The position numbers and the translations under genes are program-made. Below, piece after piece: positions 9,209-34,978 of a stretch of 64,000 bases of DNA. Positions within the stretch are counted from its first letter, which is position 1. Each line of letters starts with the position of its first letter. This DNA is from Escherichia coli (GTDB taxonomy: Bacteria; Pseudomonadota; Gammaproteobacteria; Enterobacterales; Enterobacteriaceae), in the NCBI RefSeq assembly GCF_036507355.1, contig NZ_AP027877.1; one strand, 5' to 3'. Under the pieces are notes generated by a model. That model was not told the origin of the DNA. It worked only from the letters and a program-made list of their open reading frames with translations, and did not search any database.

Positions 9209-9338
9209 ATTTAAGTGCTGCTGTATGACTCCTTAAGTAAAAATGAGCAATTTTTGATATTTCTGGTCATTCACCTCAATTAATATTATTCCATACCCTC
9301 CGGGGACATCTTACTATAATATTTATTGATGAGTGATT

Positions 9339-10598
9339 ATGACCAATATTAATACAGCTTGTGTAAAAAATAATGCCAGTTATCAATTTAATAACGCATC
9401 AACTAACAAAGAAACCATCTCCAGCAATTTTTGTGAACGACTAGAACAATGGGGTAATAAGTCGATTAATAATGGTGAAGAAAGAGCAATTGCCGTGGAG
9501 CGAATTAAAGAAGCTTACAATTCGAACATGGCATCTCTTGATTTGTCATATCTTGATTTGAGTGAGTTGCCGCCTATCCCTTCGACAGTTAATACGTTAA
9601 ATCTGGAAAACAATTGTCTAACTTGTCTTGACTTTGCTGACAATGCTAGTCTCGTCAATATCAACCTCAGCTTTAATAAAATTAACACGATAACCTTTCC
9701 AAATGAATCAAATCTGGAAAACATTTATATTGATCATAACAATCTGGAAAGTTTAGATTTAAAAAATCAGCATTCATTGGTTAATCTGGAAGCGCAAAAT
9801 AATAACCTAAAAAAAATTAATATTTCTGATAGTCATAAACTGAAATTTCTTAATCTTGATTATAACAAACTATCATCACTGGATGTCTCCCGGCAAGAGT
9901 CTCTGATTGAGTTAAGTGCCCATCACAATATGATCACTGACCTTATATTACACAATCATCCCAGGATGAAAACAATCACTTTAAACGACAACCATATTGC
10001 ACATTTAAACACCAAAACCACTACAAAACTTGAATATTTAAACTTAAGCAATAACAATTTATTGCCAACCAATGACATTGATCAACTAATATCATCAAAA
10101 CATCTTTGGCATGTATTAGTTAACGGCATCAACAATGATTCACTTGCACAAATGCAGTACTGGACTGCAGTAAGAAATATAATTGATGACACTAATGAAG
10201 TGACCATTGATTTATCTTATAATCTGGCAATCACAAATATCGATACCAGTGATGAACATCTTGTAGAAGTAAGCGATAATTCCGAAGGTAATTATATAAA
10301 AGACAATGACTCAATGTCTATTCGTTATAGATCCAAATATTATTCCAGAGAGTATACCTTAATAGAAGAAGAAACAATATTTTCTGACGCAGAATTAAAA
10401 GCTATTCTGCCTATGCGTCGCATGTACGGGGTTGGTGACTATAAGTCAAATTCCTCTTCTCTATCCTCACACTCGGGGCTCAAGGACCCAACGGGCACAC
10501 CCGTCTGTTATTATATTCATAATGAGAGTAAACCTTCCTTAGGTTATGGTCCAACATGCAATAATTGGTTAAGCCAATCCTTTACAACAGAGTTATAA
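9339..10598 (+). CDS. yddK: Leucine-rich repeat protein with IpaH/YopM-like N-terminal cap
   Basis: Repeating LxxLxLxxNxL units of ~20-22 aa; N-terminal W..W...EER..AV.RIKE..........LDLS.L.L..LP pattern; low GC; synteny (start could also be GTG 9333). Confidence 0.65.
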   Translation: MTNINTACVKNNASYQFNNASTNKETISSNFCERLEQWGNKSINNGEERAIAVERIKEAYNSNMASLDLSYLDLSELPPIPSTVNTLNLENNCLTCLDFADNASLVNINLSFNKINTITFPNESNLENIYIDHNNLESLDLKNQHSLVNLEAQNNNLKKINISDSHKLKFLNLDYNKLSSLDVSRQESLIELSAHHNMITDLILHNHPRMKTITLNDNHIAHLNTKTTTKLEYLNLSNNNLLPTNDIDQLISSKHLWHVLVNGINNDSLAQMQYWTAVRNIIDDTNEVTIDLSYNLAITNIDTSDEHLVEVSDNSEGNYIKDNDSMSIRYRSKYYSREYTLIEEETIFSDAELKAILPMRRMYGVGDYKSNSSSLSSHSGLKDPTGTPVCYYIHNESKPSLGYGPTCNNWLSQSFTTEL

Positions 10599-10660
10599 AA
10601 CACATCCTGATTTATCAAGGGTGATAAATCAGAAAAACATTGTATTACTACGGAGCAGTT

Positions 10661-23712: not shown

Positions 23713-24015
23713 TTCGCGGCATGGCAATTAACTTGCCAGTCAGAGGATATTGTTGTCCGTTATGGTAGCGAAGATTTTGCCATCAAACTTTTTAATGCAA
23801 CATTGCCGGAAGCAGAGACGGTAGCAGCCAGAGTGAAACAAGAACTTAAACTGGCAGCTATCCCGCATCAGGCATCTGCTGTTAGTGCGTTCGTTACGGT
23901 TAGTCACGGGATTACCTGGTCTGCTCCCGCCAAAACGGCTGAACAAATTATTTCAGATGCCGACGCCGCGTTATACCGGGCGAAAGCAAGTGGGCGAAAT
24001 CGATGGGCTTTATAA
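23713..24015 (+). pseudogene. C-terminal fragment of a GGDEF-domain (diguanylate cyclase-like) protein
   Basis: In-frame translation ...RYGSEDFAIKL...SAFVTVSHGITW...ADAALYRAKASGRNRWAL matches the C-terminal half of GGDEF domains; no N-terminal part and a stop immediately upstream. Confidence 0.5.
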
Positions 24016-24078: not shown

Positions 24079-24560
24079 TTACGAAAGCCCGCTCCCCGCA
24101 AGGACTGACGCCAGATAGTTTCTGTCCATGGCTGCTTTTCGCATCTTATGTCTTAACCCTGCCTTGAATACCTTATCATTCGTCAAAATATTAATAGCAA
24201 TGTGCCGTATCCCTGGAAATAATTCTGCTGCATTTCCTCTTCTTATTTTGCAGTCGTCTTCATTCATTACCACGTCCAGACGCCAGTGCAGCTTATTCTC
24301 CACGTGCCAGTGGTTTCGGATTGCTGTGGCGAACTTCTCTGCGGTTAAATCAGCAGAACTGATATAATATCTGACCGTCATTTCTGGCTCTTTCTTTTGT
24401 TCTGCTATTATGGACCGAAAGGAGACTGCCACGCATAATTTCTTCAGCCCTTTCCATTCAAACGTGAAATCAATAAGTTCATCAGGAACATCGCAAACAA
24501 TATGAAGACGGATTTCTTCTCTGCCGTGACTAAAATGCGAATTATTTAGTACAAAAAAAG
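24079..24560 (-). pseudogene. 3' remnant of an H-repeat / ISAs1-family transposase gene
   Basis: ORF 24079-24432 encodes ...[43 protein letters not shown]..., the conserved C-terminus of H-repeat proteins such as YdcC; further matching residues continue upstream in a shifted frame; N-terminal two-thirds absent. Confidence 0.6.
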
Positions 24561-24636
24561 CGGCGCACCTTGTTCTTTCCCAGATTCCTAATATGGCAAC
24601 TTTAAGTTATCGCCGTCTATACTTATAGAAATTTCA

Positions 24637-25092
24637 TCAGGGGTGACATAAATAGAATTTTTTTTCATCCTCAATTGCCCATAACTGATTAATAAAAAAG
24701 TGTTTTTTATCATCTAATAACAAATCATCACATGTAGTAAAATTATTAATATCAAAAAAATCATCAGCACAATTAATTTTTAAATTTAAAAAATAAAGAA
24801 AAATATTATTGATTGATTTGAGTGTAAACCACTTGTCATTAACAAATTTATAGCCAGATGATTTTATAAAATAATAATTATCTCCTGGTATAAAGGCATA
24901 CATATCATTTAAGGTTATACTCAACAAAAAACTACGACCTGGTTTAATAGTATTCCAGCGTTCAGGATTCGTATTAATTTCAAAAGGACATGAACCACCT
25001 AAGTAGTCCAACGTGATATTCCCAGAGTTGATCCTGGATGGTTTTTTGCATATCGCATCATATTCATCTCCTTTTCCATCTTTTACTTTCAT
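24637..25092 (-). CDS. Hypothetical protein (151 aa), AT-rich, translationally coupled to the upstream small ORF
   Basis: Start ATG overlaps the stop of the upstream ORF (ATGA at 25089-25092); no recognisable motif. Confidence 0.4.
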   Translation of the reverse strand: MKVKDGKGDEYDAICKKPSRINSGNITLDYLGGSCPFEINTNPERWNTIKPGRSFLLSITLNDMYAFIPGDNYYFIKSSGYKFVNDKWFTLKSINNIFLYFLNLKINCADDFFDINNFTTCDDLLLDDKKHFFINQLWAIEDEKKFYLCHP

Positions 25093-25379
25093 AGGTAGAT
25101 AATATTTAGAAAAAAATACGTGGTAGAGCTATTGTTAGTAAAGGTTATGTTAGCAAAAATCCTGTTATTTTTTTTACTCATAGCTAATTGAGCATTGACA
25201 TCCGCTATATAATTTATATGATTACATTTTTTCTTACACTCATCATAATTTTCGATAGGATAAATTAATGGCCTTCCTTTGATATCTCTCTCAAGCCCAA
25301 ACCCGTATTTTTTTATTAAAACCATTTCATCCGCAGTCGATTGAAAGGAATAGAAAAATATAATATTTACGATTGTCAT
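25089..25379 (-). CDS. Hypothetical small protein (96 aa), AT-rich
   Basis: ORF only; hydrophobic N-terminus; coupled to the downstream ORF. Confidence 0.35.
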   Translation of the reverse strand: MTIVNIIFFYSFQSTADEMVLIKKYGFGLERDIKGRPLIYPIENYDECKKKCNHINYIADVNAQLAMSKKNNRIFANITFTNNSSTTYFFLNIIYL

Positions 25380-25431
25380 TATTATGATTTTTTTATAGCT
25401 TGCAGCATTAATATATTTCTCGACTTATTAG

Positions 25432-26280
25432 TTAATGGAGAAGTGTTTTTTCTAATTCCGCTATTTTTTTCTTAACTGAATTGCTTAATATTTCATCATT
25501 AATCGAGTCTATCTCACTTTCAATTAATCTTATTTCAAAATATCTTTCTATGTTATATGCATTCTCAAATATTTGATCTTTTTGTTTAGAGATCAGTTTA
25601 GTTGCAATACGGATATGTTCGTCATATGAAACTTCATCCTCTTTGCACGTTGAATATTTATCAGTAGTTGTATAATCCTGTGACCACATACCACCTTTTT
25701 TATTATCCCCATAATACCACTGAATATGAGACATTTCATGACATAAAGTAGCAACATGAGAATCCTTTCCCGTTACTGGATTTTTTTTGCCATCTCTATA
25801 CTCAAATTTTGCGCCTATGTTAATTATATAGGGCATATCCTTACTTGGGCTGACGAATGCTGCAAATTCATTACAACCTGTATAATTTATAAAACTGCTC
25901 ATTGTTAAATCATTAGCTATAATCATTAATCTTCTCACGCCATCCATCATAAGAAATCTAGCATTCATGCGCCTACCTGTATTATGTCCATATTTTCTTA
26001 TATTAACTTCCTTATTTCCTTTAACACCAAAGATCTTACTGAAATAATATTCCTCCTGTGCTCCCCATCTCAAAAGATCATCTGCTCTTTTTATCAAAAC
26101 CAACTTTTGTGCCTTACGAGCCTTATCAATCATTATTTTAAAATGATCAGTTATTTTTTGCTCTTTCACACATTCTTCTGGCTCTGGCTTTGGTTGTCCA
26201 GAAGTTTGATTATTATCGTCCATAGTGTCCTTCCATTGAGAGAAAATCATCATTCGCAAATAGCAACTAAAAAGCAGCAT
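25432..26280 (-). CDS. Hypothetical protein with HExxH motif (putative zincin-like metallopeptidase or toxin domain)
   Basis: Motif ATLCHEMSHIQWYYG; ~30% GC; true start may be the internal MDDNNQ (26223); function inferred from motif only. Confidence 0.45.
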   Translation of the reverse strand: MLLFSCYLRMMIFSQWKDTMDDNNQTSGQPKPEPEECVKEQKITDHFKIMIDKARKAQKLVLIKRADDLLRWGAQEEYYFSKIFGVKGNKEVNIRKYGHNTGRRMNARFLMMDGVRRLMIIANDLTMSSFINYTGCNEFAAFVSPSKDMPYIINIGAKFEYRDGKKNPVTGKDSHVATLCHEMSHIQWYYGDNKKGGMWSQDYTTTDKYSTCKEDEVSYDEHIRIATKLISKQKDQIFENAYNIERYFEIRLIESEIDSINDEILSNSVKKKIAELEKTLLH

Positions 26281-26410
26281 TACTTGACCTTTCCCTGCAT
26301 AACAATATTTATAAAATAATACGTTTTATGATCTCACCTTGGGCTCCCAACAAGATAATTTCAGTTTTAAAGACTTTCACGAAAAAAATATAGAAATACC
26401 TCACCACCCT

Positions 26411-26701
26411 TCACTTACCAATTAATCTCACAGGAAATCCAACTTCCTTACCACAAATACAATCCCAAGTAACACCTCCCAAAATTTTTGATACTTTAGG
26501 CTGCAATGGCATTATTGACATTATAAATTTATCAAGTTCTTCGCTATATTTAATTCCCTTTATATTTCTTATTATTGATATTCTAGCAGTAAAGATAGCC
26601 GTCTCTCCATCTACACTAAAAGTGTAATTACAATTTTTTGTAATCTCATCAAATTCAACCGATAACAAATCAATATTATGGTTTGTAAACACTATGCCCA
26701 T
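26411..26701 (-). CDS. Putative immunity protein for the upstream effector
   Basis: 96-aa ORF whose start overlaps the effector 3' end by 26 nt; call rests on position and size only. Confidence 0.4.
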   Translation of the reverse strand: MGIVFTNHNIDLLSVEFDEITKNCNYTFSVDGETAIFTARISIIRNIKGIKYSEELDKFIMSIMPLQPKVSKILGGVTWDCICGKEVGFPVRLIGK

Positions 26702-28115
26702 TCCATACCTCCTTAAATTCCTGTTCAGTCATCAGATATCGACTCCCTTGATATGGATCATATATTATCACATTCCCAGCATCATCAACACCCTTAACAA
26801 GTACCCAATGCCCTACTTTACTTCCAGAATCCCACATCATTGCTCCCCATGAACCAGTATTACTGAGGGCATATAAACTAGATTCGCTCACTGCATTCCC
26901 TTCCCAGCCGACATCAAATTTATTAAGCTTGTTTGCCAGCGACGTCATAGATGTTAATTCTGTTCCAATTACATTTTGCGTGACAAAAATATACCTATCC
27001 CTAAGCAACATTTCCCCACAGGCCGCTCCACAGCCTGTTAAAGTCAATTGCTTTATTACATTTGAATCTAAAACCTCATCAAATACTGTCCAATTGCCAC
27101 CAGCACCACCTTCTAAAACTACCGGCTCTACAAATACTTTCCCAGAGATATTTTCTTCTGGTATTTTTGCGGGTATCATAAAGCCCCATAAAAAGCTGGC
27201 AAAATGCTCCAGAGCAATCTGATCACCATTATTTGCATCCATTATCATTTTTTTAAGTGCATCCCATGCTTGCCCATTTATCAATGAATCACTAATATTA
27301 AATAAAGCCTGTTCTTTTTCGTTTAAATTTATATTTGCCTGTTCACATAACCCATCTTCGCCTATCGGGCAAGCAACCGTTGCCGTTGCCGTATCTAACA
27401 GAGCATCGAATGTAACTAAGGCTAAATCCGCCACACCATGTAAAGTGGTGATTGCTCCATTCCCCATTTGAGTAAGTGTGTTCTCTACAAACCATTCTCT
27501 AATTTGAGATTTATCTCCTTCAATATCATTCCTGAGAGATTCTCTGATATTCTTTATTGAAAAAAACTCCCCCCATGATTGGTCAGGATCTTTTATTTGG
27601 AATAAATCATTTTTAACCTCAGGTGAAATATCTCCGTCAAAAATATTACCAACAGAGAGGAGATCCTTCAGAAGCAGTAAATCGTGTATTACTTCAGCAG
27701 TCCTTTCATAATTAAAAGTTCTATCAATGACAGAAATCATTGGTGATTTTATTTTGGTATATAATTTACCAAGGCAGTTATGGTTATTAATCCCAACAAC
27801 TGAACCATGATAAGCGACAGGTCTCCCCTCTATTGTTACAGTCGGACTTCCCGTTAAAATAACGCAGTCACCTGTTCCTTGAGATGTACCAGATATGACA
27901 CCTTTACCGGCATTACTTTGAGTTCCAGCAATCACTGAACCAACATTTAAAGCTCTGCATCCACGCGCCCATACCGTTGAACTGTACTGCCTTTCACTAT
28001 CTAAAGTCTGGTAACTGTCAAAAGGAACCTTGTCACCTCCTACTTCACATACATCTGGTGAAGAGCACACGACTTTAAATCTACATTCACCATCCCCGAT
28101 ATGATAGCTACCCAT
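26676..28115 (-). CDS. Putative T6SS effector: N-terminal DUF4150-type PAAR-like domain, C-terminal C39-like papain-fold Cys peptidase domain
   Basis: N-term SPDVC...VPFDSY...GKGVISGTSQG...TVTIEGRPVAYHGSVVGINNHN resembles the DUF4150 pattern; C-term GCGAACGEML and GHWVLVKGVDD...IIYDP resemble Cys and His motifs of C39/papain-like peptidases; downstream of vgrG. Confidence 0.6.
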   Translation of the reverse strand: MGSYHIGDGECRFKVVCSSPDVCEVGGDKVPFDSYQTLDSERQYSSTVWARGCRALNVGSVIAGTQSNAGKGVISGTSQGTGDCVILTGSPTVTIEGRPVAYHGSVVGINNHNCLGKLYTKIKSPMISVIDRTFNYERTAEVIHDLLLLKDLLSVGNIFDGDISPEVKNDLFQIKDPDQSWGEFFSIKNIRESLRNDIEGDKSQIREWFVENTLTQMGNGAITTLHGVADLALVTFDALLDTATATVACPIGEDGLCEQANINLNEKEQALFNISDSLINGQAWDALKKMIMDANNGDQIALEHFASFLWGFMIPAKIPEENISGKVFVEPVVLEGGAGGNWTVFDEVLDSNVIKQLTLTGCGAACGEMLLRDRYIFVTQNVIGTELTSMTSLANKLNKFDVGWEGNAVSESSLYALSNTGSWGAMMWDSGSKVGHWVLVKGVDDAGNVIIYDPYQGSRYLMTEQEFKEVWNGHSVYKP

Positions 28116-28698
28116 AATATTTTTTTCCTATACATTCAGGAATAATACAACTCAGCACTCCTTCTTTCATTCCAAAAAAATCAGGTATTGTCAATCTCCA
28201 GGTAAGGTATATTTCCTGTCGATTTAAATCGATAACCATTGTATCCGCAACAGGTAAGAACATATGAGATGTATTATGCTTGGTTTTTAATATAAGTACA
28301 GGTCGTATACCTGGCAATTTTGTCTTAACAACCTGTTCAAATTTAAAAAAACCTTCAAGAGTGATGTTTTCATCGCCAGAGAGAAACCCCGCGTATATCA
28401 TATCCGGATGAGCACTATTGTAGAACCTCTCATCAAAATCATCCGGCAAATAGGGATAGCGCTTTTCACGCCATACTTCATTGTAGGTTCCTGCATACTG
28501 GAGGCGACTTTTCCACCATCGAGATACAGGGCCAACGCCTTGAAAAAAGTCAGATTCCCCATTAAAAATGGTAGCGTTTTCTGACAAAGCAGAGCTGGTT
28601 ATTTGTGGGAGTTTATATTGACAACTTGTATTAAGTTGGGAAATATCAGGATAATATCCACAACCTACAGGGTTTGCTGAAAAAACCAATTTTCCCAT
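28108..28698 (-). CDS. Hypothetical protein in adaptor/chaperone position between vgrG and the effector
   Basis: 196-aa ORF; stop overlaps effector start by 8 nt; adaptor role (DUF2169-type by analogy) inferred from gene order only. Confidence 0.35.
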   Translation of the reverse strand: MGKLVFSANPVGCGYYPDISQLNTSCQYKLPQITSSALSENATIFNGESDFFQGVGPVSRWWKSRLQYAGTYNEVWREKRYPYLPDDFDERFYNSAHPDMIYAGFLSGDENITLEGFFKFEQVVKTKLPGIRPVLILKTKHNTSHMFLPVADTMVIDLNRQEIYLTWRLTIPDFFGMKEGVLSCIIPECIGKKYYG

Positions 28699-29560
28699 AC
28701 CATCTGGTTGCCAAATACCACCGTAAGCAAGCTCATAGCGTAGAGGAATATTAATAATTTTATCGTGAGATGCTGATCGTTCGCTACCACAATCTTCTGA
28801 TCATGACTGCCTTCCTTCTTACTCCCAACATTCACCGTCTGACCCACACCCACCGTAATTTTCTGGTTATTGGTTATGGTTTCCGTGTGGTCGTGTTTCA
28901 CCGTCGTCGTCCGGTCATTCAGCACCTCCGTATCCATGTTCTTCTGCGCATGGATATACACCTGCTCATTACTGGTGGCGTCTTCAAACCGCAGCTCGTT
29001 AAATCCGCTTCCTTTATAGGTTTTTGACCGGATGGTCATCTGCGTCTTCGTTCCCGGCAGGTCGCCCGGCGAACGGTTGTCCTCATGGTAGGTCCGCCCC
29101 ATGATTATCGGCTGGTCCGGGTCGCCGTTCAGAAAATCAACAATCACCTCCTGGCCCACCCGCGGTATCGCCAGGTTACCGAACCCCGGCCCCGCCCACG
29201 CCTGCGATACCCGCACCCAGCATGAACTCGCCTCCGTCATCCCGTGATAACGGTCCCAGTGGAACTTCACCCGTACCCGGCCATGTTCATCGCAGAAGAT
29301 TTCCTCTCCCGCAGGCCCGGTGACAATGGCACTCTGCGGCCCGTCCACCTTCGGTTTGCTTTGCAGCCGTGGACGCCACGTCCGGTCCGCCGGTATCACC
29401 TCTAACTGATTTCCCAGCGTGGTTCCTCTCCCTTGGCTGCCGTGCAGCGCCTGCGGCTGGTTTCCTGACAGAATGCTCTGTACCACCTGCCATTCACGGT
29501 TCAGCATCTTCTGCGGATGAGGTGTACTGGCAATAGCGGACACTACCATTTGTTCTTTTT

Positions 29561-30379
29561 TTAAGCAGCCATCTGATGATATTTTTCCCTGAAGGCTGCC
29601 GGGGAGATATTCCCCAGACGAGAGTGACGACGCTGACGATTGTAGAAAATCTCAATGTATTCCCGTATTACTGAGATGGCTTCATCCCGGTTATTAAAAC
29701 GATAGTGGCTCAGGCTCTCATTTTTCAGCGTTCCCCAGAAGCTTTCCATCGGAGCGTTGTCGTAACAGTTACCTTTACGCGACATTGATGTTTTCAGACC
29801 AAACTGCTCCTGTATGACCCGGTAATCGTATGCGCAGTACTGTGAACCTCGATCAGAGTGGTGGATTAGCCCGGCAGGTGGGCGCTGTCTCCTGAGCGCC
29901 ATAAACAGGGCTTTACCTGTCAGCTCTTTTGTCATGCGCTCTCCCATGGCGTAGCCGACAATTTCGCACGTATAAACATCTTTGATGCCAGCGAGGTACA
30001 ACCATCCCTCCTGTGTGGCAACATACGTCAGGTCCGCCACCCAGACCTGATTTGGTGCTGTAGGAGCGAACGTCTGGTTCAGCAGATTTGGCGCAACTGG
30101 CAGATTGTGGTTCGAGTTCGTAGTCGCTCTGAACTTGCGTTTCTGCTTACAGCGTAGCCTTAGCTCCTTACGAAGACGTGCCAGTCGGTCACGACCAACG
30201 ATGATGCCATTCTCTGCCAGCTCCGTCTGGAGCCGCCGGGTTCCATATGTTTCGCGAGTGCGGATATGTGCCACCTTAATCTCCAGTTTTAGCCGCTCAT
30301 CACTTTGTTTTCTGTCTGAGGGTTCATGCTGTACCCAGTTGTAATAACCGCTCCTGGATACACCAAATACCTGACACAT
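29561..30379 (-). CDS. IS600-like transposase OrfB (DDE integrase core)
   Basis: 272-aa ORF with IS3-family OrfB sequence; normally expressed as an OrfAB fusion by -1 frameshifting. Confidence 0.8.
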   Translation of the reverse strand: MCQVFGVSRSGYYNWVQHEPSDRKQSDERLKLEIKVAHIRTRETYGTRRLQTELAENGIIVGRDRLARLRKELRLRCKQKRKFRATTNSNHNLPVAPNLLNQTFAPTAPNQVWVADLTYVATQEGWLYLAGIKDVYTCEIVGYAMGERMTKELTGKALFMALRRQRPPAGLIHHSDRGSQYCAYDYRVIQEQFGLKTSMSRKGNCYDNAPMESFWGTLKNESLSHYRFNNRDEAISVIREYIEIFYNRQRRHSRLGNISPAAFREKYHQMAA

Positions 30380-30414
30380 CGCTTCAATGGGAAATTGTTG
30401 TCGCCATTGTTCGA

Positions 30415-30717
30415 TTAACGCGTATTTTTCAGCGACTCCTGTGCAAAATACGCTGTTGCTTTTTTTAATATATCTCGCTCAAGGCGAGCTTCATTTAACG
30501 CCTTACGCAGTTGCAGAATTTCAGATTCCAGTTCAGCCACCGTGCGGGAACCAGGAGTACCGAGCCCTTTTCTGGCGGCGGTAACCCATTGTCCTAAAGT
30601 GCCTTCAGGAAGAGATAATCGGGAAGCGCCTTCACTGATCGAAAGTTGATTTTCAAGAACCGTTCTGACAGCTTCGGCTTTGAACTCTTTAGAGTAACGT
30701 TGGGTTTTTCTGCTCAT
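30415..30717 (-). CDS. IS600-like transposase OrfA (HTH)
   Basis: 100-aa ORF MSRKTQRYSKEFKAEAVR... typical of IS3-family OrfA. Confidence 0.8.
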   Translation of the reverse strand: MSRKTQRYSKEFKAEAVRTVLENQLSISEGASRLSLPEGTLGQWVTAARKGLGTPGSRTVAELESEILQLRKALNEARLERDILKKATAYFAQESLKNTR

Positions 30718-31725
30718 TATTAGCTCCTTCTGATGCCATTCTATTTCAGGAAGGAGTGTCCGTTAAACTCAGGCTACCTCAGGATGCCCCGTCAGCGTAA
30801 ACCGCGTTCCCGGCCACAGCCTCGGCGAATTACTCTGCCCTGTGGCCTTTTCCGCATCACTGCGCAGGCTCTCCATCTGGTACAGCGTGAAATCCTTGCC
30901 GTGCTGCTCATCCTTGAACCTTCCCGGATAATCAAATATTTCATACTGCGCCAGCTGTCCGTTCAGGTTCTCACCCTGCTGCTCATACATCCCCGGCCAG
31001 TCCGGCACCTTAAACGTGTAATCCTGGCTCTGCACCGACGACGGGCGGACATGCGCCTCATAACGGAACATACTGAGACACTCCGTCTCCGCTCCTGCCG
31101 ATGTGTCCGGGTTAAACGGAAGCTCTCCCGCCTGTGACAGCCCCGCCACATCGTCGCACAGCGTCAGCTTCTGCTCCGGACTGTCCGCCGCAAACCGCTC
31201 AAAGAAGAAAATTCCCTCCTCCGCCCACAGCCGGGACAGAAACGCCAGGTCGCTTTCCCCGTACTGGACACAGAACTCCCGCGCCGGATGGTCCTCATAA
31301 AACAGCGGCGTCCACTCCGTGACGCCGTTCTCGTTCAGTAACGTGGCCGATATCGTCCGGATATCCTGCTGCTGGAAGATACGGAAGTTCTGCCGCAGCC
31401 CGCACCGCCATAACGGCGGCTCAATACGCAGGTGATAACGCATCTGCCAGCCGTTATTCTCCTGCATACCAAAACCCGCCACCACGCCGGTGACATAACG
31501 CTGCGCCACTGCGCCCTGCCAGATGGTCAGCGTCGCCTTCTTCTCCAGCAGCATCTCCGCCGTCTGCATAAAAGAGTCGCTGGCAACATCCACACTCATC
31601 ACAAACGGATATGACTGGCTCTGGATTAACCGGAAGCTCACCACTGCAAAGGTGTCCGGCTCCTGGCCGTCAACCTCCAGCGTAAAGCGAAGACCTTTTA
31701 ATGACATAAATACCTCTCAGACATA

Positions 31726-32010
31726 TCAGCCTATATTTACCGTGCCGCCACCGATAACCACGCCGCCGCAGTCAACAGCATCACCGCTTCTGGCGGCGGG
31801 CAGACCGTCAATAAAGACGGTTGAAGAACCTCTGGCGATTTTTCGGGGATGAGGGGGATGCTTCGGTTTAGCATGCGGCGTCAGCGGATCTCCCTGACGG
31901 GCTGCGGGAAGACCATCGATAAAGACGGTGGATGACCCGGCGGTGATGACGGTCTCGTAATAACCGTCGTGCTGGGTGCCTTTGTCGGTGAGTTTGGCTG
32001 CTAAAGGCAT
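31726..32010 (-). CDS. PAAR-repeat protein (T6SS spike tip)
   Basis: 94-aa ORF containing GLPAARQGD and GLPAARSGD; immediately upstream of vgrG on the same strand. Confidence 0.8.
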   Translation of the reverse strand: MPLAAKLTDKGTQHDGYYETVITAGSSTVFIDGLPAARQGDPLTPHAKPKHPPHPRKIARGSSTVFIDGLPAARSGDAVDCGGVVIGGGTVNIG

Positions 32011-32594: not shown

Positions 32595-33212
32595 TTAAAT
32601 AATGACATTCCTTTTTAATACTTCTTGTAATTTCGGTAACTGACATACAGCATCAGCAATCGCACTGATATTCGTGGCATTATCCTGAAACCATTCATGC
32701 CCAGGCCCCCATGTGCGCATAGTGCAAAGATAACAGTCCACCAGCGTTAGTTGCTCACCAAACGCATAAGGTTCAGCGGTCAATTGTGAATTCAGCCAGA
32801 TATAAAGCGATTTACGATATTCAATAACATTCTTCTTTAACTGTTCGGGTGCGTCAGGAGCCCAACGCTCAGGGTAATCGGCGAAAGTGAATGTTGGATA
32901 GACATTAGCAACCAGCCAGACCAATAGCCGTTGAAACTGCTGACGTTCGGCGCGCCCAACCGGTGGCGCAAGGTCCGGGCGACGATCGAGAACCATCAAT
33001 GCAATCGCCGCTGTCTCCGTCATAATCTCGTCATTTTCCAGCGCCAGTGTCGGAATCTGACACAACGGGTTCAGGGTTTTCAATAACTCGCGTGAAGTTC
33101 CCTCGTGGTCAAAACCACTGACATCAACGAACTGATAAGGAATATCAGCCAGTGTTAGCATCAGCTCACTGATTGTAGAGCCCCATCCGGGTACGCCATA
33201 CACCTTAATCAT
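32595..33212 (-). CDS. yncG: Glutathione S-transferase-like protein
   Basis: 205-aa ORF; synteny next to ansP. Confidence 0.8.
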   Translation of the reverse strand: MIKVYGVPGWGSTISELMLTLADIPYQFVDVSGFDHEGTSRELLKTLNPLCQIPTLALENDEIMTETAAIALMVLDRRPDLAPPVGRAERQQFQRLLVWLVANVYPTFTFADYPERWAPDAPEQLKKNVIEYRKSLYIWLNSQLTAEPYAFGEQLTLVDCYLCTMRTWGPGHEWFQDNATNISAIADAVCQLPKLQEVLKRNVII

Positions 33213-33478
33213 ATGCCCCTCACAATCTTTTAAAGATTAAGTGTAGGACAGTACACAGGTTAACCAGCAAAAGGATTTGTCATTTTTTCGTCAGTTGTAT
33301 TAATCCCCTTCAGGATTGTAAGGGGATGTTTTGCATCGTTTATCGATAACGGGTAGGATGCTGCGCCGATAGTTTTATACCCATAAAGAATAATGGTGAT
33401 AACTATCATCGCCAGGATGAATAAACATTGTTCATGGCAACTTATATGACTTTTTCATTAAAGCAATCAGGGAGAGCA

Positions 33479-34978
33479 ATGAGTAAACACGACACCGACA
33501 CTTCAGATCAACACGCCGCGAAACGCCGCTGGCTTAATGCCCACGAAGAGGGGTATCACAAAGCGATGGGCAATCGCCAGGTACAGATGATCGCCATTGG
33601 CGGCGCGATTGGCACCGGCTTGTTTTTAGGTGCAGGAGCCCGACTGCAAATGGCGGGTCCAGCACTGGCACTGGTTTATTTAATTTGTGGCTTGTTTTCG
33701 TTTTTTATTCTGCGTGCATTGGGTGAGCTGGTGCTACACCGCCCTTCCAGTGGCAGTTTTGTCTCTTATGCCCGTGAGTTTTTGGGTGAGAAAGCCGCTT
33801 ATGTTGCTGGCTGGATGTACTTCATCAACTGGGCGATGACGGGGATTGTTGATATTACCGCCGTCGCTCTGTATATGCATTACTGGGGTGCGTTTGGCGG
33901 CGTGCCGCAGTGGGTCTTTGCGCTCGCTGCGCTGACCATCGTTGGCACCATGAATATGATCGGTGTGAAATGGTTTGCGGAGATGGAGTTCTGGTTTGCG
34001 CTTATTAAAGTGCTCGCCATTGTGACCTTTTTGGTCGTGGGTACAGTGTTCCTCGGTAGTGGTCAGCCGCTGGATGGCAACACGACTGGCTTACATTTAA
34101 TTACCGATAACGGCGGCTTCTTCCCCCACGGTTTGCTGCCTGCTCTGGTATTGATTCAGGGCGTAGTGTTTGCTTTTGCCTCCATTGAAATGGTGGGTAC
34201 AGCTGCCGGAGAATGTAAAGATCCGCAGACCATGGTGCCTAAAGCGATTAACAGTGTGATTTGGCGTATTGGCCTGTTTTACGTCGGCTCCGTGGTGTTG
34301 CTGGTTATGTTATTGCCGTGGAGCGCGTATCAGGCGGGGCAAAGTCCGTTCGTGACGTTTTTCTCTAAACTGGGTGTGCCATATATCGGCAGCATTATGA
34401 ACATTGTGGTGCTGACCGCTGCCCTCTCCAGCCTGAACTCAGGTCTGTACTGCACCGGACGTATTCTGCGCTCAATGGCGATGGGCGGTTCCGCACCGAG
34501 TTTTATGGCGAAAATGAGTCGTCAGCATGTGCCGTATGCTGGGATTCTGGCGACACTGGTTGTGTATGTCGTCGGCGTATTCCTCAACTATCTGGTGCCG
34601 TCGCGCGTATTTGAGATTGTGTTGAACTTCGCGTCGCTGGGAATCATCGCTTCATGGACGTTTATCATCGTGTGTCAGATGCGCCTGCGTAAAGCGATTA
34701 AAGAAGGCAAAGCAGCGGATGTCAGTTTTAAACTGCCTGGCGCGCCCTTCACTTCCTGGCTGACATTACTGTTTTTACTGAGTGTCCTTGTGCTGATGGC
34801 GTTCGATTACCCGAACGGGACTTATACTATCGCGGCGCTGCCGATTATCGGTATTCTGCTGGTTATAGGCTGGTTTGGTGTGCGCAAACGCGTTGCTGAA
34901 ATTCACAGCACTGCGCCAGTCGTCGAGGAAGATGAAGAAAAACAGGAAATTGTGTTTAAGCCTGAAACGGCGAGCTAA
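33479..34978 (+). CDS. ansP: L-asparagine permease (APC family)
   Basis: 499-aa 12-TM ORF from MSKHDTDTSDQ. Confidence 0.9.
   Translation: MSKHDTDTSDQHAAKRRWLNAHEEGYHKAMGNRQVQMIAIGGAIGTGLFLGAGARLQMAGPALALVYLICGLFSFFILRALGELVLHRPSSGSFVSYAREFLGEKAAYVAGWMYFINWAMTGIVDITAVALYMHYWGAFGGVPQWVFALAALTIVGTMNMIGVKWFAEMEFWFALIKVLAIVTFLVVGTVFLGSGQPLDGNTTGLHLITDNGGFFPHGLLPALVLIQGVVFAFASIEMVGTAAGECKDPQTMVPKAINSVIWRIGLFYVGSVVLLVMLLPWSAYQAGQSPFVTFFSKLGVPYIGSIMNIVVLTAALSSLNSGLYCTGRILRSMAMGGSAPSFMAKMSRQHVPYAGILATLVVYVVGVFLNYLVPSRVFEIVLNFASLGIIASWTFIIVCQMRLRKAIKEGKAADVSFKLPGAPFTSWLTLLFLLSVLVLMAFDYPNGTYTIAALPIIGILLVIGWFGVRKRVAEIHSTAPVVEEDEEKQEIVFKPETAS

Follow-up and report, generated by a model that had tools for sequence, protein, structure and literature searches.

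The M35 block at 24588–26266 (minus strand) of a 64,000-nucleotide stretch of Escherichia coli chromosome (contig NZ_AP027877.1; the whole stretch is referred to here as the window) is best explained as a two-gene type VI secretion system (T6SS) effector–immunity cassette, present in this strain as a displaced and decayed copy whose immunity gene is frameshifted. We place the probability of this reading at roughly 85%. The first gene is intact and is predicted to encode an M35-family (aspzincin) zinc metallopeptidase of 263 amino acids (aa), a VgrG-linked T6SS cargo effector; the second would encode an immunity protein with a signal peptide. A first-pass annotation of this segment described three open reading frames (ORFs) of ~282, 96, and 151 aa, a single HEMSH motif, an ATGA stop-start overlap, and a guanine-cytosine (GC) content of ~30%, and all of these features are present. 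Its proposal of a toxin and immunity cargo module is likewise borne out, as the module belongs to a vgrG island, and the toxin is aptly called orphan in that it is no longer directly coupled to vgrG in the window. The length of the effector, its family, and the number of downstream genes are revised below.

The 282-aa ORF lies at 25432–26280 on the minus strand and contains the motif ATLCHEMSHIQWYYG, the sole HExxH in its translation. Its start at 26280 appears to be over-extended. The conserved start is an ATG at 26223 (MDDNNQ...) with a GGAAGGA ribosome-binding site ahead of it; RefSeq and all homologs use the same position, giving a predicted protein of 263 aa (25432..26223) in place of the ~282 aa first suggested. 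Most of the 19 extra codons, from 26266 down, fall out of frame in a 3’ stub of vgrG, and the first few lie just upstream of that stub. Within the 263-aa protein, the HEMSH zinc-binding/catalytic motif (H162, E163, H166; residues 162–166) maps to 25726..25740 on the minus strand and is invariant in homologs. D183 (25675–25677, minus strand), the putative third zinc ligand, sits within a conserved GGMxxxD; in short family members it stands 9 residues past the second His, as in GfMEP. Because H162, E163, H166, and D183 are invariant across 27 homologs, we regard the HExxH feature as real and not a chance occurrence. The effector has no signal peptide. Variants of the toxin gene were also seen: it is variable at an A-run near codon 250 (L003, L019, L020, L022, and L023), takes a C-terminally truncated 253-aa form in B2-type strains (S88, APEC O18, 536, and ECONIH2), and is split into two ORFs in O145 RM9467.

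The HExxH protein had been considered unassignable by eye to any known family, yet its RefSeq name is “peptidase M35”, and profile and fold comparisons lead to the same family. Taken singly, the window protein matches Pfam Aspzincin_M35 (PF14521) at a sub-threshold E = 0.005, has no NCBIfam match, and retrieves only noise at E ≈ 1 when searched with phmmer against PDB sequences (AsaP1 at E = 1.3), so that a family profile is required. The Pfam model is matched at E ≤ 0.1 by 10 of 11 family members and at E ≤ 0.001 by 2 of 11 relatives (best 2.3e-6). A profile built from 11 relatives retrieves AsaP1 (E = 7.9e-6) and GfMEP (E = 5e-4) from the PDB. The match spans the HExxH region through to a C-terminal helix with the shared motif NAxN.E.F (NADNHEYF in AsaP1, NAYNIERYF here), and it aligns HEMSH to HESSH of GfMEP and to the AsaP1 equivalent, which reads HQLSH in the E294Q mutant chain. 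An AlphaFold2 (AF2) model of the protein scored 89.4 in predicted local distance difference test (pLDDT) and 0.85 in predicted template modeling (pTM); searched with Foldseek, it returned the aspzincin catalytic-domain fold with probability 1.00 and template modeling (TM) scores of 0.66–0.73 normalized to the target. Based on the profile matches to AsaP1 and GfMEP and on the four invariant residues, we assign the HExxH protein as a predicted M35/aspzincin-fold metallopeptidase with an added N-terminal helical region. Clustered at 50% identity, the family is small, with 48 representatives in a set of 1.84 billion proteins.

Relative to GfMEP (1G12), AsaP1 (2X3A), deuterolysin (1EB6), and MEROPS family M35 at large, the window protein has in common the HExxH motif and, putatively, a downstream Asp ligand. 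It differs in carrying an extra ~100-residue N-terminal helical region and a C-terminal helix, and in having neither the signal peptide nor the pro-peptide or pro-domain of AsaP1 and classical M35 enzymes. Classical members are secreted as zymogens, whereas the window protein would be delivered by a T6SS. Enzymes of the peptidyl-Lys subfamily are Lys-specific endopeptidases; the window protein is placed in M35 by its sequence and fold. M35 includes known toxins and is not the housekeeping peptidase family, free of toxin association, that would have spoken against a cargo role.

We also weighed membership of the VgrG2b C-terminal/Tpe1 (DUF4157) effectors, in which case the downstream gene would encode a PA0261/Tpi1-type immunity protein. 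A published analysis equates M35-PAR, a paralog of the window protein, with the VgrG2b metallopeptidase domain (PMC10673891), and the logic is the same in both systems: a vgrG-linked HExxH toxin acts in the periplasm, and the next gene specifies an immunity protein that is targeted to the envelope and has conserved cysteines (PMC6899460). However, Pfam DUF4157 matches neither the window protein nor any of the 11 family members, and no VgrG2b chain appeared at E ≤ 10 in the PDB-sequence profile search. In addition, the Enterobacteriaceae PA0261 homologs of Wood et al. (PMC6899460) are lipoproteins, a description that sets them apart from the window-type immunity protein, which has no lipobox. 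Membership of this group was rejected for lack of a sequence or fold match and we hold it to be very unlikely. The window protein is filed under M35, and not under DUF4157. The VgrG2b C-terminal domain and Tpe1-Tpi1 (DUF4157; PMC6899460) remain an instructive parallel: the toxin is likewise vgrG-associated, periplasmic, and of HExxH type, and its immunity protein is exported and rich in conserved cysteines as in the window type, but the zincin family is different and the window-type immunity protein is probably not a lipoprotein.

Downstream of the effector, ORFs of 96 aa (25089–25379) and 151 aa (24637–25092) lie on the minus strand and overlap by a stop/start at 25089–25092 (cct-ATGA-aag). 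The first-pass annotation read them as two translationally coupled small genes that might encode two immunity proteins. Comparison with homologs shows that they are instead parts of a single immunity gene (24588..25408, minus strand), a pseudogene broken by homopolymer frameshifts. Its product would be a periplasmic signal-peptide protein, 273 aa long if translation starts at the ATG at 25408 and 263 aa long if it starts at the one at 25379. The 96-aa ORF corresponds to the signal peptide and first ~90 residues and terminates at a frameshift-induced stop. The 151-aa ORF is the C-terminal fragment. It begins at an ATG that is the internal Met107 of the full-length protein, carries no signal peptide, and departs from the frame of the conserved C-terminus ...IDGxxxKLPY over its final 6 residues.

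Intact forms of this protein occur in E. coli as P0030 (273 aa) and as P0084 (263 aa, starting at Met11), which was found on 294 contigs and is the commonest member seen. When P0030 is searched against the window by tblastn, its residues 6–100, 99–257, and 257–273 fall in three successive frame segments. In Salmonella, the downstream gene encodes 276 aa in one uninterrupted ORF; its product matches at 41% identity over 275 aa (E = 6e-77), and colinearity extends from the signal peptide as far as the C-terminal ...IDGxxVKLPY. The immunity paralog of an E. coli T6SS cluster is also colinear (E = 1e-21), and 301–308-aa paralogs elsewhere have the same core, with invariant cysteines C121 and C141 and the motifs LDY and LNDxYxF. 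Full-length downstream proteins begin with signal-peptide-like segments and two Cys are invariant in all copies; the signal peptide of the immunity protein ends ...FQSTA/DE, with no lipobox cysteine. Homolog searches with a single sequence and with a 3-sequence profile recovered relatives of the E. coli type only and no named family. The small ORFs are thus conserved, as one gene and not as two. A related observation comes from Salmonella enterica subsp. arizonae/indica, where a 273-aa immunity protein (P0093) is at least 90% identical to the E. coli form, which suggests that the two genera recently exchanged the cassette horizontally.

Two genuine translationally coupled genes, encoding immunity or accessory proteins, would account for the ATGA overlap, which is real, and for the recurrence of split forms: in a spread sample of complete genomes, two ORFs annotated as hypothetical proteins lie under the immunity gene in 7 of 59 (e.g., L003, L023, and L025). 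Both window lesions are also found in E. coli BCE049, so the split state is inherited and not a read error. The split points nevertheless vary by genome (codons ~80, ~100, ~219, ~240, and ~257), and those checked directly (~80, ~100, ~219, and ~257) fall in A/T runs. The two ORFs also match consecutive parts of a single protein in Salmonella, in P0030 and P0084, and in the 301–308-aa paralogs. Moreover, the second ORF starts at an internal Met with no export signal, though the toxin acts in the periplasm, and it ends out of frame with the conserved C-terminus. We allow this alternative only the slimmest of chances and retain the interpretation of one frameshifted gene.

The lesions were called by aligning the window with three other E. 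coli genomes, and all lie in minus-strand homopolymers. A T7 run at 25110..25116 (T8 in intact alleles) is a one-base deletion that splits the gene and creates the ATGA overlap. With T8, the frame reads on as ...TYFFSKYYLPMKVKDG..., from which it follows that the ATG of the 151-aa ORF is an internal codon and the TGA of the 96-aa ORF a product of the shift. An A8 run at 24658..24665 (A7 in intact alleles) is a one-base insertion that replaces the last 17 residues and brings a premature stop at 24637. Length also varies at a third run, 25388..25394, which is A7 in the window and A8 in the 273-aa form. In the A7 state, the frame opened by the upstream ATG (25408) meets a stop, and translation would begin at Met11 (25379); this state may be tolerated, since the Met11-start form is the one most often seen. 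Across eleven copies (the window and ten complete genomes), differing combinations of length changes occur at six A/T runs, at codons ~5–7, ~80, ~100, ~219, ~240, and ~257. The shift at codon ~240 is lineage-wide, being found in S88, APEC O18, Nissle, 536, and ECONIH2.

Single-base changes in A/T runs of 7–8 nucleotides are a classic error mode of several sequencing platforms, and the complete genomes in the collection reach at best 99.5–99.6% identity to the window in this region, with none matching it exactly. Assembly or sequencing errors could in principle have produced both lesions in a strain whose immunity gene is really intact. Against this, T7 and A8 occur together in the independently sequenced BCE049 genome, where the fragment ends ...EDEKKFYLRHP; other frameshift alleles are common to whole lineages, including the Sanger-era S88; and insertion sequence (IS) insertion and vgrG truncation have independently damaged other parts of the island. 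As BCE049 carries both lesions, they are taken to be inherited, and error was rejected as the main explanation of the frameshifts; we regard it as unlikely. We give little credence to a further reading, in which the six A/T tracts serve as a phase-variation switch or permit transcriptional or ribosomal slippage, or in which the toxin has been retained for some function that does not depend on immunity. If slippage occurs, the window strain, BCE049, O145, and the B2 strains would still make some full-length immunity protein; if a switch operates, lineages with an intact toxin and a “broken” immunity gene would toggle self-protection and kin discrimination.

The association with vgrG loci anticipated for this module is found throughout the related loci. 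In 7 of 7 related locus types, the M35 homolog overlaps the vgrG stop by 8–14 nucleotides and is followed by a downstream gene of 203–308 aa, which is a single ORF wherever it is not frameshifted and is frameshift-split in some E. coli copies. The comparison covered E. coli orphan islands (L002, L003, L020–L023, and L025); E. coli T6SS clusters, namely the Hcp-VgrG cluster (L013/L014) and the metV cluster (L007–L009, L015, and L018), the latter holding two tandem M35 copies; Salmonella loci (L004–L006); and further genome and metagenome loci (L010–L012). The overlap of vgrG and M35 is 11 nucleotides in L002 and L003.

In the window, this arrangement survives as a vgrG 3’ stub of the last 17 codons (26216..26266, minus strand), which overlaps the M35 start as in intact loci. 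The stub was found by tblastn with the 801-aa VgrG of L002, residues 785–801 of which match 26266–26216 at 100% identity and abut the M35 start; this argues that the M35 cassette was once vgrG-coupled. Residues 1–310 and 306–561 of the cognate VgrG flank an IS element, residues 562–784 have no tblastn match in the window, and the truncated vgrG reading frame continues into a DUF2169-like fragment. Since only the last 17 vgrG codons are left and the vgrG body is disrupted, the linkage is ancestral and not current in the window. By the same comparison, the M35 cassette was displaced when a C39-type module replaced the vgrG 3’ region.

Two published studies bear directly on this cassette. In E. 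coli BCE049, “T6SS effector locus1” (FQU84_13600-13645) holds an M35-peptidase as its module 5; the protein inhibits E. coli growth only when it carries a PelB leader, and the cytoplasmic form is not toxic (PMC7904677; Front Vet Sci 2021). We located this gene as FQU84_RS13640 (FQU84_13640 / WP_000342575.1), whose product is 98.9% identical to the window protein (3 differences in 263 residues). BCE049 has the same gene at the same chromosomal site, with a PAAR-vgrG island, M35, a split downstream gene, and an ISAs1 remnant, and its downstream gene has the same T7 and A8 lesions as the window. The two copies differ in that the BCE049 M35 gene still overlaps an intact vgrG, whereas the window keeps the 17-codon stub with the C39-type module interposed, and in that the BCE049 immunity gene has an additional frameshift at codon ~80.

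The second study concerns M35-PAR (AKO63_2955) of E. coli PAR, which is toxic and is neutralized by AKO63_2956; it binds VgrG only via the DUF2345 segment, the C-terminal part of VgrG, which is needed for loading (PMC10673891; Commun Biol 2023). We mapped AKO63_2955 and AKO63_2956 to L018 at 32630–33418 and 33503–34429, respectively. Relative to the window genes, the PAR effector is 30% identical (E = 6e-33) and the PAR immunity protein 31% identical over the core (E = 2e-21). The gene order is that of intact window-type loci: vgrG, an effector overlapping the vgrG stop, and then the immunity gene. M35-PAR is nonetheless a paralog inside the metV T6SS cluster; its protease domain has ~30 residues inserted in the N-terminal half, and its VgrG is of DUF2345 type whereas the VgrG of the window island type ends in a Gp5_trimer_C/TTR-like region. 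With regard to the PAR locus itself, the “stand-alone DUF2345 gene” AKO63_2954, which PMC10673891 uses to illustrate an adaptor encoded separately, seems to represent the last 250 codons of a vgrG at L018 30120–32637 (NZ_CP012379.1 2970120-2972637), which RefSeq marks as a pseudogene with an internal stop in one frame (560 + 250 aa). A literature search for “aspzincin” with “type VI secretion” returned no papers, and general papers on T6SS effectors of E. coli and Salmonella covered only Rhs-MPTase4 and M91 metallopeptidases, not this family.

These experiments also inform the question of whether the M35 protein, like AsaP1, is a secreted protease aimed chiefly at eukaryotic hosts and not an antibacterial toxin, with a dispensable downstream gene. 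The toxin gene does remain intact in lineages with a broken downstream gene, as would be expected if immunity were superfluous. However, deletion of locus1 in BCE049 left mouse virulence unchanged (PMC7904677), toxicity to E. coli is periplasm-specific, and, in contrast to AsaP1, the protein lacks both a signal peptide and a pro-domain. All related loci also retain the downstream signal-peptide gene, and the paralog’s copy neutralizes its toxin. An anti-host role is, in our judgment, highly improbable.

Under the preferred reading of an antibacterial effector–immunity cassette, the M35 protein of intact loci would be translated from a start codon overlapping the end of vgrG, loaded on the C-terminal part of its VgrG, and carried on the VgrG spike. 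We infer that the T6SS would fire it into the periplasm of neighboring Gram-negative cells, where, as a zinc endopeptidase, it may cleave an envelope target and stop growth. In sibling cells, a Sec-exported, disulfide-containing periplasmic immunity protein would bind and block the protease. In the window copy, vgrG has been cut by the IS, with codons 562–784 replaced by a PAAR-like/C39 module and the 17-codon stub left behind.

Several observations weigh against this reading. The canonical aspzincin motif GTxDxxYG, including its Tyr, is not conserved; the window family has GGMxxxD in its place, with no conserved Tyr. Neither proteolytic activity nor a substrate has been reported for any member of the T6SS M35 subfamily. 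PMC7904677 and PMC10673891 describe heterologous toxicity and paralog co-immunoprecipitation, and no T6SS-dependent secretion or killing by this protein. Immunity function has been shown only for the 31%-identical paralog, and the mapping of AKO63_2953-2956 onto RefSeq depends on gene order and the internal stop in vgrG. The AF2 model of the immunity protein (7 sequences) is too poor for a fold search at pLDDT 55.8, and suggests no more than an N-terminal helix and a beta-rich core. Lastly, an intact toxin stands beside a broken immunity gene in several lineages, unlike a simple active toxin-immunity pair.

The cassette of this strain is probably an inert relic, as its cognate vgrG is disrupted, T6SS core genes are absent from the 64-kb window, and frameshifts divide the immunity gene. 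The larger immunity fragment, the 151-aa ORF, would in any event be made with no export signal.

The toxin and immunity block is common: at least 80% of 24400–26420 is present in ~508 of the 5426 complete E. coli genomes. The immunity gene itself occurs in ~631–642 of the same 5426, and the excess over the block includes orphan immunity copies. For example, Nissle 1917 (L024 1364–3460) has a 251-aa immunity copy with no adjacent cognate M35, located downstream of a different “peptidase M35” and a 227-aa gene. This arrangement points to arrays of M35 modules in which orphan immunity genes have been retained. Overall, the module is ordinary, already annotated, and partly characterized (PMC7904677, PMC10673891); it is not novel, and its significance beyond correct annotation is small. 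We propose that “peptidase M35” in the window be read as a T6SS cargo toxin and that the two downstream hypothetical ORFs be annotated jointly as a single immunity pseudogene with frameshifts. That intact toxin genes recur beside frameshifted immunity genes is a curiosity.

The cassette resides in an orphan T6SS island on the minus strand, between pptA and yncG. The backbone of the window is E. coli chromosome, in which narZYWV-yddE-nhoA-yddH-pptA and yncG-ansP-yncE flank the island, and GC falls from ~0.52 in the flanking backbone to 0.29–0.34 over 24500–26500. The island comprises, in order, PAAR (31726–32010), a split and truncated vgrG (28665–31707), a DUF2169-like fragment (28108–28698) ahead of a PAAR-like/C39-type effector (26676–28115), the 96-aa immunity gene of the latter (26411–26701), the M35 block, and an ISAs1-family (H-repeat) transposase remnant (24079–24432), all on the minus strand. 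An IS3-family element at 29561–30717, with ORFs at 29561–30379 and 30415–30717, splits vgrG after codon ~310. The ISAs1 remnant marks the pptA-side boundary of the island and lies outside the module. An NCBIfam scan of all six island proteins gave nothing useful, and a promoter and terminator scan of 24300–26800 found no excess over shuffled sequence (19 promoter-like sites versus 14.5 ± 3.6; 1 terminator-like site versus 0.9). In K-12, the same site is occupied by the RhsE-ydcD-ydcC element, and the island may be the counterpart of an Rhs locus.

Finally, two features of the window lie outside the island genes described above. Between pptA and the M35 cassette, the plus strand at 23803–24015 encodes the C-terminal remainder of a GGDEF-type diguanylate cyclase (...DADAALYRAKASGRNRWAL). 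A further AT-rich stretch at 10000–12500 (GC 0.32–0.35), upstream of a narU-like ORF, features two plus-strand ORFs of ~420 aa at 9333–10598 and 10640–11914.

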